64,000 bases of DNA from contig NC_134032.1 of NCBI RefSeq assembly GCF_964204645.1, forward strand, positions 13,752,275-13,816,274. The letters are read 5' to 3'. Positions 3,501 to 63,301 of the stretch are shown here, in pieces. How positions within the stretch are numbered: position 1 is the first letter of the stretch; the number at the start of each line of letters is the position of its first letter. The position numbers and the translations under genes were made by a program. This stretch comes from Tubulanus polymorphus (lineage: Eukaryota; Animalia; Nemertea). The notes beneath the pieces are model-generated. The model searched no databases and was not told the origin of the DNA. It worked only from the letters and a program-made list of their open reading frames with translations.

Positions 3501-6500
3501 AACCATGAAATTAATCATTCTTACTGAATAGCGTCGAGTGACGTGGATATTAACCACTGAAATGTTGTCTATTTTTAGAATCGGGATTAAGTCCGTATTT
3601 CAAACCGTTTAACAAAGAGAACGAAACGGAGAAAGCTTTACGTTTAAAACCCGATAAACTTCACATAGAGGAATTGATGGAGTTTCCCGAGTACGAGAAA
3701 TATCCGACCGTATACCTCGGCGTACGTAATTTAGTGTTATCCCTCTGGAATCTGAACTGTAAGGTAAGTTAGTTGTCGAGTCCACTCTCTTATGATTTAT
3801 CTGTCAATCATTAGTTTTGTCATCAATAGTTCCGTCAATAGTCTCATGGTATAGTCTCAGGGAATAGCAAATCATAGTGGCCACCCCATGGTTGTGTCAT
3901 GTGCTGTCATTCATTTTGAAGCTCCACCCACTTGTCGTCCAGAACTGCTGCCAACAGTTCCTGATTTTCAGTTTTTGTTATTATTATTTTGTTACATCGA
4001 CAAGAAATACTGATTTGTTTGATGCGTACAGAAATATGAAAGATGTTACTGAGGGTCTTAATGTTGATTACTGATTAATTTGAACAGAAATATGAAACAT
4101 GTTACTGAGGGTCTTACTGTTGATTACTGATTAATTTGAACAGAAATATGAAACATGTTACTGAGGGTCTTACTGTTGATTACTGATTAATCTGAACATT
4201 TTCATTCATTTACTGAAAAAGATTTAATTTATTACATATAGCACTTTTCAGAGGTCGGCAGCCATGCAATTATTGGTATGGTTAGCTCTACCATGTGTCA
4301 TTCATTATTAAGCTCCGCCCACTGGTTGTATTTGTAGGAGTGGTTAACGGCCGAGGCGTGTGAACCGTATCTGATTTGCGGCGGTACCGTGCGTATTCAC
4401 GTGTGTACGATACTGTTAGAGCGTATTGTACGATACCTCACGTATCGAGGTATCATCAATACGGGCGTGTTGATACCGCCGTCGTCGTGGTCACCGGTAT
4501 TAACCGCAGATACGAGAAAGCGCCACCGTGTGGTGATAATCGGAGCCGGTGCGGCGGGACTCGGAGCCGCAAGACATTTACAGAATTTAGGAGCCGAGGT
4601 AAAACATTTGATTTAGAGATGGATATTTAATTTGATTTAGAGATGGATATTTAATTTGATTTAGAGATGGATATTTAATTTGATTTAGAGATGGGTATTT
4701 AATTTGATTTAGAGATGGGTATTTAATTTGATTTAGAGATGGGTATTTAATTTGATTTAGAGATGGATATTTAATTTGATTTAGAGATGGATATTTAATT
4801 TGATTTAGAGATGGGTATTTAATTTGATTTAGAGATGGATATTTAATTTGATTTGGAGATTTGATTTCTGGAGATTATTTAATTTGATTTCAAGATGGAA
4901 ATTTAATTTGATTTAGAGATGGATATTTGATTTGATTTAGAGATGGATATTTAATTTGATTCAGAGATGGATATTTAATTTGATTTAGAGATGAATATTT
5001 GATTCTCTGCATTGATTCTCTGTGAAGAAAAACACAACACATGAGGTGGAATTTTTGAAATTTTCAAATCATCTCCAGGGCCCAGTTTCATGAAAAAGCG
5101 TAAACCTAAAACGGTTTAGTTTGAATTGTCGTCCTCATTGAAGACATTAAGTAGCCAATAACGATTACACCAAAAATTTGTATTAAACTTTTTTATGAAA
5201 CCCAGCGTTTACAGGTATCAATCAATCAGCACTGAAAGGGTTAATTTTTCTATTGATGTTGCAGGTGCTGGTGTTGGAGGCACAGGATCGAATCGGAGGA
5301 CGAGTTCACGACGATCAATCGCTCGGAGTCTGCGTCGGACGTGGAGCTCAAATAATCATCTGTTGCATTAATAATCCATTCTCAATGATGACCGAACAGG
5401 TAATTATCATTATATCTACTGCGGCAAGTGAGGATCCACCAGGTGGTGCTAGTGTGCAGTAGGACATTAGAAGCCTTTTTATGAACCAGCATAATCAGAA
5501 TAGATTAGCTATTTAGATTATATAGCCGATTAGTATCAATTATCATAACCGGCTATGTTGGTTGATAAAAACACGAGGTAGAAATTATCCAATTATGGTG
5601 CACTCAGCAGCAACTCACTACGGAGAACACCATCTTGGTTGGATTAGATAATCGGCATGCTTGCTCGCCGAGCGAGTATGCTGGGTATGCTAATCGATTA
5701 TGATAACCAATGTTCATAAAAATGACAGATTATGACATAATCCATGCTCATAAAAACGTTTGCATAATCGTGTACACTAATCGAGTGTTCATAAAAAGGC
5801 CTCAACTACTGTGGAAATAGAGGATTTTACTTGTAGATAGTGAAGATCCACCAGGTGTCGCTAGTGTGCAGTAGGACATCAACTACTGCGGCATTTGAGG
5901 ATTCCACTTGTGTCAGGTGGCGCTGATAGTCTTCAATTTCTTCTACATTGCAAATTAATTAAATCAAACCAAAGATTGTCACGAGTGTTAAACCAACCGT
6001 CAGTCACCCCATCTGGTGTTACTGACACCAATTAAACCAATTAATTCTAGGTTGAAAGATAACTAGTTTGTAATTGATGTAATTGTTTGTAGTTGGATTT
6101 ACCGATGAAACATATCCGCGAGAAATGCGATCTGATCGATGACAAAGGGAACGTGGTCGGCGATACGATCGATCGACGAGTTGATTTCCATTTCAACGCC
6201 ATGTTAGACATCGTCGCCGATTGGAGGAGAGATAAACGTTTAAACGATGATTCAAATCTTTACGGTGATTATAACCTTTAATCATTACCTTCGTTAATCA
6301 ATGACTATATATTTGATAAACCTTAATCCATTAATTGTTTGTTTCATCGATCAGATAAAATTGAAGAGATGCATAAAGATTTCCTATCAGAATCGCAGTT
6401 GAGTTTCTCAGAGGTGAGTTTCTTCTTATTGGAGTCAGGGAAAGGTGTACATATTATTGGAGTACCTACTTGCCCTGATGAGAATATACTTGTCCCGGGC

Positions 6501-60948: not shown

Positions 60949-63301
60949 GTAAGTGGGTAGGCAGTATCATCAGGGGGCGCGTGGGGTTTGAGATAAGCTC
61001 GGGCGCTTCTGGGGTGTGTGGAGCCCCATTATCCAGAAATTGCATATAAAAAACAAATCGATCAAACAAAATGCGCATTAATCACCTAATTACCATACAA
61101 TCAACGGTTTCCTTTGTTACGATTAGAAAAGAATTATTCGAATGCGAAGATTTAAATCAAACGGTCCCCCTTTGGTAAAGTTGACGATTCGAAACTAAAT
61201 CGCCTGATAAAGAGTTTTATTTATTACAATTGTCAGCTGGGATTTTCTATCTGAAATTGAAACAATCTTTCCGAAATAATGGCCAATCATCGTTTATGAC
61301 AACGACGTTAAAAATGAGCTGAGTTTTTGATAACGATCTGGTGAAGTCGTGTCGTGATTTAACTGTGACACTGTAAACATGTTTTTACATTGTTACTGAT
61401 GACGTATCACATTGCGCTAGCTATCACCCCCCATCCTGTAACTGACAATAGACTGTTCCCGGCCGCTGCTGCTGATGCTGTGACGACAAGTAATCTATGC
61501 GACAGACAGGCATCTACATCTTCCTAATACACAAACTGACCGTCGTCAAGGTCACCGTTTCTGTTCATATCGGGATTTACTGCGGCGGATTAAGGCGGAT
61601 TATCTCCAGTTCAGTCCCACATAATTTTCTTCTCGGTGATTTTAAAATCAACACCAGCTTTATGGTAAGAAACAAAAAATCGATATTGTAATTAATCAAA
61701 AACGTAAATCAGGGGTTTATTTTTAGAAGCATTTTACGAGATTTAAACTAGATTTACTATACGGCCGGCTTAGCGATGAGTAACAACGTTTTATCCTATT
61801 TCGAAATTGTCTTCCGAATATCATGTTCGAAATTATATCTAAATCTATACCAATATATTGTTCCTATTTTCGCATTGAAGGTTCTATGGGAGGGGATGTT
61901 GTGGATCCAATTTGGATTCTAGTTCCAATTAGCTGGATAAGATTTGAAGGGTGAATTTATAGTAGAAAGATATATTTTGGAGGTTGATTGGAATCTATAT
62001 ATATATATATAATCATATTGGAAAAATGATAGATCAATATTATACCTCTTCAAACTGATTAGAACTCCCAGTTAGTACGGCTCCATATTCACACAGCTCA
62101 GCGGAGGAGCTGAAGTGATACCTGCAGCAAATCAGTACTGAGTGGAATAGCGCGTACCGTACCGTACATCTATCCCTGTCTCATCAACAGAAAGGGGAAC
62201 GTGGAAGTGGAATCGATGTGGATTTACAACATAATTGGTTGAAATCGTGATCATTTATTCAACGTTGAAACAAAAATGTTGAATTCATGTTAGTTTTTCA
62301 TCTAATCATATACAACCTTAATTTTACTATACAAACATTGAGTTTTAACATAATTTCAATGTCGTTAAAACCGTTCCTTCTCACTTGGAGGAAGGCAAAA
62401 TAATATGCCCTCTCCACCGAGCATTTACGGAATGACTATTGGGTCAGAACGATTTACGAAAACCCCTATCCTCTGAGCAGAAAATTAGAAAAAGCCAAAC
62501 TCCCTTAGTCTGATTATACCACAACACGATGTCTGAGCAGTTTTACAGAATATACTGTCGCGTCAGAAGCCGTTATTATTAGAAGGGCTTTGTGTAACCA
62601 TCTCTGGGTGTTGATACAGCACGGCTTAGCTCTTCACTCCATCCATCAACTTCAATAAGACAGTTAAATCTTTCTACAATTGTCATTGCATCTTTGAAGG
62701 AAAATGAATATATTTCATATATCTTTATTGATAAAATCCTAATTGTCACACAAAGTCGGAGGAAATTACGTTCAGAATGACAGACGACCCACAGAACGAA
62801 GTCTGTCCCCTGGCTGTCTCGTGTAGCCACCTACGAATCCTATATGTCTCGCTATCGGAGGAAAAACTGTGATTGAAACCCTTAAAACGTGGATAGATTC
62901 GTTTGACGATGAAACCGGTGTTTAATTGATGCACTCGAGAAGCTTCTGTCGTCTGAATATCAGACGATCTTATTCGAGTTACTGCGCCGAGACATCTCCT
63001 TCCGCCGCCTACTCAAACATCGTTATATGTGCCAGTTCAATAAAGCTATCCTTCTTACTCTCTCTACTCTTTCCCTCTCTCTCTCCCCGTTTTCTCCCTC
63101 TCTCTCCATCTCTCTCTCTCTCCACTCTCGCCCCTCAATCTCTCCACTCTCACTATCCCCCTCAATCTCTCCACTCTGTTCTCACTCTCCATCTCTCACT
63201 CTCTCTCCAGCCTCTCACTCTCTCCATATATCCACTCTCACTCGCTCTCTCTCACTCTCTCCAGGGATCAGTAGTAATCCAGTGTTGTATCATTATCTTA
63301 G

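Follow-up and report, generated by a model that had tools for sequence, protein, structure and literature searches.

CTCF-type motifs behind 5' splice sites and within codons at a Scribble-dominated locus of the ribbon worm Tubulanus polymorphus

CTCF is a bilaterian protein whose motif is reported as the commonest in annelid open chromatin (PMC7854359, PMC12221973) and which has been lost in some bilaterian lineages (PMC12221973). Outside vertebrates, in accounts of flies, echinoderms and spiralians, it is not clearly described as an anchor of oriented loops (PMC13317027, PMC10658181). In mammals, CTCF bound within 0.6-1.5 kb downstream of a minority of alternative exons has been linked to their inclusion, CD45 exon 5 being the tested case (PMC8373115, PMC4446157). 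Here, we report that in a stretch of 64 kb from the ribbon worm Tubulanus polymorphus (hereafter the window, that is, the whole DNA that was analysed), which holds three genes (KDM1B/LSD2-like, ARHGAP18-like and Scribble), CTCF-type motifs crowd just past 5' splice sites (donors) and recur inside coding exons.

The closest described systems each share something with this locus. As in mammalian CTCF-coupled splicing (CD45; PMC8373115), sites lie in or downstream of exons, contain a CpG and lean to the downstream side, but in Tubulanus they peak 10-35 nucleotides (nt) past donors, follow mostly constitutive exons with normal splice sites and mark a quarter of the donors examined. The distance between motif and exon centres fits the first nucleosome of CTCF-phased arrays (PMC2453330), which in human were described from micrococcal nuclease (MNase) data and with no link drawn to exon ends, whereas phasing in Tubulanus would be read from spacing. 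An abundant motif with no clear orientation rule is also what has been reported in the chromatin of Dimorphilus (PMC7854359), Euprymna (PMC10658182, PMC10658181), and sea star and urchin (PMC13317027), but these and related reports place CTCF motifs at promoters, in open chromatin and at boundaries without polarity (PMC7854359, PMC13317027, PMC10658181, PMC10658182, PMC12221973) and are not known to place them at exon ends or in codons. Finally, a protein-binding word within coding DNA is reminiscent of published 'duons' or exonic enhancers, with the difference that in Tubulanus one motif stands roughly tenfold above codon-matched expectation and carries on into the adjoining intron.

A full-text literature search (which covered few subscription papers and no supplements) found no donor-proximal or codon-level CTCF excess in an invertebrate, and the main text of a bioRxiv preprint on spiralian Hox chromatin makes no mention of CTCF; the placement at exon ends and in codons is apparently new to the literature. 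It is real and strong, at one locus that Scribble dominates. A donor peak at base resolution and a tenfold codon excess would link CTCF with the structure of exons in a spiralian, would place codon choice under a further constraint, from a transcription factor, and would open two debated ideas to direct tests: (i) pausing of RNA polymerase II (Pol II) at intronic sites and (ii) CTCF-anchored nucleosomes in exon definition, which a review singles out as the least studied link (PMC8373115).

Exons were mapped by exact spliced translation onto identical NCBI proteins of Tubulanus polymorphus (100% identity). The resulting map has 62 coding exons and 59 complete GT..AG introns of median length 444 nt; with an extra donor at 60948, it offers 60 exact donors for tests (14 in KDM1B, 14 in ARHGAP18 and 32 in Scribble). 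Read data cover 50400-56100 only, where contigs of runs X2 and X4, from two studies, contain eight GT..AG joins of Scribble between 50603 and 54971, seven as modelled and one in which exon 29 is skipped; KDM1B, ARHGAP18 and Scribble exons 1-20 rest on RefSeq proteins. According to the eight RefSeq isoforms of Scribble, exons 20, 28, 29 and 31 are cassettes.

Sites were scored with a vertebrate CTCF matrix (after JASPAR MA0139.1), independently of the picks made in an earlier note on the same DNA, whose own consensus, with at most one mismatch, matches 16 times in the window against 0.25 expected. Outside repeats, the matrix matches 33, 27, 18 and 11 times at thresholds of at least 10, 12, 14 and 16 bits, respectively, against 2.1, 1.2, 0.27 and 0.17 in local dinucleotide shuffles and 4.8, 2.0, 0.56 and 0.19 for column-permuted matrices. 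Once repeats are masked, the non-coding DNA amounts to 38,282 nt; its most over-represented 8- and 9-mers, simple sequence aside, are themselves CTCF-like pieces (k-mer counts were used in place of a de novo expectation-maximisation search, which drifted to G-rich simple sequence and was dropped), and 27 sites chosen by an 8-base core alone also bear the CTCF upstream arm (mean -1.0 vs -8.9 +/- 1.0), likeness to the matrix spanning about 15-19 positions. There is about one site per 2.4 kb, which, set beside the 15,000 or so conserved CTCF motif positions cited for the human genome (PMC2749850), hints at a high density, although the two are different measures.

Placement relative to donors is far from random. 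The core is present in 12 of 60 donor windows (+4..+70), where per-window shuffles give 0.20, and of the 17 intronic matches that reach 12 bits outside masked repeats, 12 have their centre no more than 130 nt past a donor (within-intron permutation gives 4.4, p = 1e-5), and for seven of these the distance is 35 nt or less (permutation gives 1.2, p = 3e-5), the enrichment thus persisting after both masking and permutation. At the same threshold and with the same masking, density reaches 5.2/kb at donor +10..35 (7 in 1348 nt), then falls to 1.5/kb at +36..130 and 0.4/kb on the acceptor side, with 1.0/kb in exons (9 in 9066 nt) and 0.13/kb in intron interiors (3 in 22889 nt); the donor zone is denser than exons (p = 0.002), interiors (p = 2e-7) and the acceptor zone (p = 0.004). 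Leaving out Scribble exons 26-32, the core still lies within 70 nt of the donor in 8 of 53 cases. The earlier note had described CTCF-consensus motifs recurring shortly past donors in all three genes, and all 14 distances that it gave match the exon map to the base, but three of the sites that it listed are poor matrix matches (53843, -0.2 bits; 49188, 4.8 bits, core only; 10205, 5.9 bits) and the pattern does not extend to all three genes. Donors marked by a core site outside repeats number 2/14 in ARHGAP18, 11/32 in Scribble and 0/14 in KDM1B, where the site at 5436 belongs to a copy of a dispersed repeat of ~75 bp. By core or matrix, 15 of 60 donors are marked. Since the window was picked by a reader who had seen the donor pattern, the donor p-values carry selection bias.

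Outside that choice lies the second result, which the earlier note had not made and which concerns exon bodies. Coding exons contain 11 sites of at least 10 bits against 1.05 in third-codon-position shuffles (500 shuffles, maximum 4) that keep the amino acid, the first two codon bases and the next base, and the excess is absent when 60 permuted matrices are run on the same exons (1.43 vs 1.53). This tuning of third codon positions points to selection.

The other two regularities that the earlier note had proposed fare less well. Sites were said to lie also 30-60 nt before acceptors, and matches are indeed more numerous there than shuffles give (3 of 59 acceptor windows against 0.08; core in 1 of 59), but within introns they show no positional preference, with 2 of 17 matches no more than 60 nt from an acceptor where permutation gives 2.3, and an acceptor-side code was rejected on that count. 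Nor do motifs clearly follow the direction of transcription, the sense bias being mostly non-significant (12 of 17 in introns, p = 0.14; p = 0.04-0.18 for those no more than 60 nt from donors; 5 of 11 among exonic sites).

Our preferred reading, held at slightly less than even confidence, is that these CTCF-consensus sites are under selection, are likely truly bound by CTCF, and mark exons via chromatin instead of choosing splice forms. CTCF would bind the sites 10-35 bases past donors and those inside coding exons, and, both orientations being in use, the word would therefore be read as DNA. A footprint of ~60 bp would open a linker over donor DNA and phase a nucleosome on the exon just upstream, CTCF and nucleosome together slowing Pol II, it may be supposed, once transcription has passed the 3' splice site of the exon. 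In human, the stretch protected by CTCF measures ~60 bp, inside a 118-bp linker between positioned nucleosomes (PMC2453330), and the next nucleosome centre should therefore lie ~130 bp away; around a site at +20..30, a footprint of that size would extend over the donor DNA, with a nucleosome set on the exon. Of 13 cases in introns of at least 300 nt, 12 show 80-150 nt between the centres of motif and exon, and the shorter the exon, the farther its site tends to lie from the donor (rho -0.68, p = 0.011, post hoc). The sites may also help to keep CpG-rich exons apart from CpG-poor intron repeats. The observed/expected CpG ratio is 1.5-1.66 in the coding exons of these three housekeeping-type genes, as against 0.24-0.56 in the masked repeats of introns beyond 40 nt and 0.74-1.02 in unmasked interiors, and NCG codons (TCG, ACG, CCG, GCG) are the most used for Ser, Thr, Pro and Ala in the window's exons, which suggests exons that are unmethylated amid methylated intron repeats and a repeat-directed methylation in this ribbon worm. 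Spiralians are described as repeatedly showing gene-body methylation (PMC10658182), from which such a pattern would differ. The effect would be a generic marking that reaches part of the exons (in 21 of 60, a site lies in the exon or no more than 130 nt past it), possibly with an added role at alternative exons.

Several observations weigh against this reading. Thirteen of the 15 marked donors are in Scribble and KDM1B has none outside a repeat, and three genes, one of which dominates to this extent, are too few to speak for a whole genome. The correlation with exon length rests on three adjacent short exons (29-31) and loses significance once two short introns are added (rho -0.36, p = 0.19, n = 15), exonic sites, some of which are 21-64 nt from the exon start, would displace a nucleosome rather than place it, and marked exons show no difference from others in CpG content and nearby repeat load. 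One donor site (52580-52598) is polymorphic, the allele in run X1 differing at two bases, both informative, and selection on single sites is therefore not absolute. Beyond the first 35 nt, the asymmetry between donor and acceptor sides is not significant (p = 0.20), and the T-rich acceptor tract may therefore explain part of it. A metagenome comparison is no help either. The perfect 16-base motif occurs in at least 116 loci, and among the matches listed 69 are low-coding, or 48 after merging shared flanks (20 viral loci are uncounted); at a distance of 4-35 nt, a donor-like 9-mer accompanies the motif on 2 of 95 sides of these 48 loci (other distance bins 2-5) and on 2 of 92 sides of coding loci, again among the matches listed, where the 27 core matches in the window itself give 11 of 54. 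As the loci may not be animal genes and the donor matrix was built from the window, which flatters the last figure, this is a weak test, and it lends nothing to a pattern common to all animals. In a bolder extension, CTCF would be a genome-wide exon-punctuation factor in the ribbon worm, with sites in codons and at a set short distance behind donors in thousands of genes, phasing nucleosomes, pacing Pol II and shielding CpG-rich exons from repeat silencing, in a role possibly older than vertebrate loop anchoring; we regard it as doubtful.

The alternative that survives best, although we think it unlikely, is the roadblock known from CD45, in which CTCF in or just past an exon pauses Pol II and so rescues exons that are weak or alternative, with methylation of the motif's CpG as the switch. 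Apart from the mammalian precedent (PMC8373115, PMC4446157), it draws on a lean of cassette exons towards sites, which follow 3 of 4 of them against 12 of 56 other donors (p = 0.045) and occur in 5 of the 7 introns next to a cassette as opposed to 10 of the 53 others (p = 0.008), on the skipping of exon 29 in contigs from two studies, on a G at the motif's CpG position in 27 of 33 non-repeat sites as against 56% in the vertebrate matrix, and on longer upstream introns at marked exons (590 vs 392 nt, p = 0.043, one of eight comparisons and uncorrected). Inside Scribble, however, the lean is non-significant (p = 0.08-0.59; for cassette exons themselves 3 of 4 vs 10 of 28, p = 0.28), the alternative exons are neighbours, and 12 of 15 marked donors lie outside cassette exons. 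Splice sites of marked exons are ordinary, with no difference from unmarked ones in donor (p = 0.78) or acceptor strength (p = 0.39), as scored with leave-one-out matrices built from the window, nor in exon length, downstream intron length or GC content. A re-analysis of human and mouse data, moreover, traces the build-up of Pol II at CTCF sites in introns past exons to input bias, and finds it gone after input normalisation (PMC4514851). With ordinary splice sites and mostly constitutive marked exons, a code for weak-exon inclusion is therefore poorly supported, and of the earlier proposal of a general exon-marking system in place of sparse insulators it is the dense association with exons, in position and in third codon positions, that stands.

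We find it improbable that the pattern reflects the architecture of this locus, with Scribble and its neighbour forming a CTCF-rich boundary or loop-anchor region in which exon-adjacent sites were just sheltered from indels and nothing is specific to exons. The skew between genes is what one would expect on this account, since exons with a site inside or after them number 17/32 in Scribble, 3/14 in ARHGAP18 and 1/14 in KDM1B (Scribble vs KDM1B donors, p = 0.02), and mixed orientations have been reported at echinoderm boundaries (PMC13317027). Yet it fails to predict a narrow donor-side peak several times denser than exons, and repeats begin 10-20 nt past several donors, so that shelter there must be weak. 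The sites are spread over 40 kb with no convergent or divergent pattern found across them, and with 27 non-repeat matches of at least 12 bits in 64 kb, in mixed orientation, they do not resemble sparse vertebrate loop anchors or insulators, convergent or divergent at domain edges.

Neutral survival, a possibility that the earlier note had itself raised, would make the motifs merely common in old unmethylated DNA and leave them near exons as intron interiors turn to repeats or lose CpG. The gradient is there, with the repeat-masked share climbing from 0.13 at donor +7..40 to 0.35-0.5 deeper in the intron and the CpG ratios of exons and masked repeats as far apart as stated above; 13 of the 15 marked donors are among the 41 with little adjoining repeat, masking covers solely repeats that recur within the 64 kb, and one site is polymorphic. 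Survival, however, cannot account for sites being tenfold in excess through the third positions of codons. The parts of short introns beyond +35, taken as a stand-in for old DNA, have 0 sites in 971 nt, unmasked interiors retain CpG and yet are without sites, and even within 200 nt of donors the sites crowd into the first 35 nt (6 of 11, p = 0.002), a poor fit that makes us consider this explanation quite improbable. Least probable, in our opinion, is another reader of the word, be it a zinc-finger protein other than CTCF but of similar specificity (architectural proteins with zinc fingers are known that are specific to a lineage; PMC12221973), an RNA element of the kind of the intronic G-runs that act as enhancers after donors, or a gene-conversion drive favouring bound alleles, a suggestion to which the unusually CpG-rich exons and a binder whose putative identity is read from its motif are favourable, but which is at odds with a likeness spanning ~15 positions of the CTCF matrix and, for an RNA element, with the use of both strands and the many sites that have no G-run.

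As to where the sites come from, those at 5433, 5845, 18143, 18218 and probably 52379 are repeat-borne, and the ~75-bp unit, which carries a CTCF-like word of 15-18 bits in five copies (including 52377-52396), is a possible source of new CTCF-type sites. Mammalian SINE (short interspersed element) waves disperse CTCF sites, and the Tubulanus repeat is alike in carrying such a word; unlike in that case, the 13 core donor sites and the exonic sites lie outside repeats. No relationship links the flanks of these 13 donor sites (their best local score is 25, and random pairs reach 26), which rules out for them an origin from a single transposon. That the sites are not one transposon, as had been noted, is right for these 13, but not for 5436, in a repeat copy, nor probably for 52380, where nearly all bases are common to the repeat. 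The coordinates of all sites are collected in Table 1.

Table 1. Genes, alternative exons, repeats and CTCF-type sites in the window. Donor distances are from the donor to the motif centre; sense and antisense are relative to transcription.
Feature	Coordinates	Strand	Score (bits)	Details
KDM1B/LSD2-like gene	551..10378	+		15 coding exons in window, residues 32-877; exact translation, P0121
ARHGAP18-like gene	14263..20519	-		15 coding exons, complete; exact translation, P0122
Scribble gene	21511..60948	+		coding exons 1-32, residues 1-1492, runs past window; exact translation, P0001
Scribble exon 20, cassette microexon	49277..49294	+		18 nt; missing from isoform X3; no site after exon
Scribble exon 29, cassette	54376..54438	+		missing from isoforms X5, X6, X7; skipped in contigs of runs X2 and X4
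Scribble alternative last exon, coding part	58358..58447	+		isoform X8; within intron 31; core-only match at 58374
Donor site, ARHGAP18 intron 1	20303..20321	-	18.4	+30, sense
Donor site, ARHGAP18 intron 4	18447..18465	-	18.7	+31, sense
Donor site, Scribble intron 5	30482..30500	+	15.8	+20, sense
Donor site, Scribble intron 7	31718..31736	-	15.5	+15, antisense; intron of 85 nt
Donor site, Scribble intron 9	33163..33181	+	16.4	+19, sense
Donor site, Scribble intron 12	37685..37703	+	15.7	+55, sense
Donor site, Scribble intron 16	40222..40240	+	23.8	+24, sense; best in window
Weaker site, Scribble intron 17	41173..41191	-	10.5	+41, antisense; new relative to earlier note
Core-only site, Scribble intron 19	49182..49200	+	4.8	+15, sense; intron of 100 nt, ahead of cassette exon 20
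Polymorphic site, Scribble intron 26	52580..52598	-	8.9	+26, antisense; other allele (run X1) 16.0 bits
Site after Scribble cassette exon 28	53808..53826	+	21.0	+20, sense
Second site, Scribble intron 28	53888..53906	+	14.8	+100, sense
Site after Scribble cassette exon 29	54525..54543	-	22.8	+96, antisense
Site, Scribble intron 30	55083..55101	-	14.6	+65, antisense
Site after Scribble cassette exon 31	55797..55815	+	13.6	+123, sense; new relative to earlier note
Site after Scribble exon 32	60964..60982	+	8.7	+25, sense
Exonic site, KDM1B exon 6	4518..4536	-	14.3	
Exonic site, ARHGAP18 exon 2	19848..19866		12.3	first of two
Exonic site, ARHGAP18 exon 2	19931..19949		16.1	second of two
Exonic site, Scribble exon 14	38825..38843	+	11.0	27 nt before exon end
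Exonic site, Scribble exon 16	39765..39783	-	12.4	first of two
Exonic site, Scribble exon 16	39834..39852	-	13.9	second of two
Exonic site, Scribble exon 21	50541..50559	+	14.4	
Exonic site, Scribble exon 22	50781..50799	+	17.2	first of two
Exonic site, Scribble exon 22	50883..50901	+	11.5	second of two
Exonic site, Scribble exon 25	52048..52066	-	17.4	14 nt before exon end
Exonic site, Scribble cassette exon 31	55642..55660	-	13.8	
Acceptor-side site, ARHGAP18 intron 1	20038..20056	-	10.1	~60 nt before acceptor
Acceptor-side site, Scribble intron 16	40898..40916	+	12.5	~37 nt before acceptor
Acceptor-side site, Scribble intron 25	52379..52397	-	17.4	19/20 bases common to ~75-bp repeat
~75-bp dispersed repeat copy, KDM1B intron 7	5415..5467	+		carries the 5436 site (5433-5451, 17.7 bits, +43); self-BLAST
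~75-bp dispersed repeat copy	5802..5919	+		mid-intron site 5845-5863
~75-bp repeat, tandem copies, ARHGAP18 intron 4	18143..18316	+		sites 18143-18161 and 18218-18236

A few minor observations complete the picture. Seven of the 60 donors read GTACGT and four of them precede a motif, this form being commoner at donors before sites (4/13 vs 3/47, p = 0.03, post hoc). The microexon 20 of Scribble has a core-only motif in the short intron that precedes it (100 nt), and contigs of runs X2 and X4 continue from exon 31 into intron 31 (55654-56100), a hint of a further 3' end. ARHGAP18 and Scribble are arranged head to head, with start codons ~990 nt apart, and the interval between them (20520-21510) contains no matrix match of at least 8 bits, unlike the promoter-centred CTCF motifs of Dimorphilus.

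Among the metagenome matches listed, flanks of the perfect motif are common to 17 low-coding loci (L029, L036, L059, L069-L071, L073, L079, L080, L090, L091, L101, L105, L106, L113, L131 and L134), which form a repeat family in eukaryote-like DNA, and the motif also occurs in a GC-rich non-coding stretch common to two viral contigs (3.6-3.7 kb) and two metagenome loci (L002, L018 at 601-616, L124 and L130, taken together). Within Scribble itself, a satellite family with a unit of 106-108 bp is scattered across several introns (22385-22926, 31971-32842, 34357-34438 and 36363-36996), and intron 17 contains a 2.6-kb array (41677-44297) of 105 copies of a 25-bp unit, which is open in three frames of the + strand because the unit is without stops.

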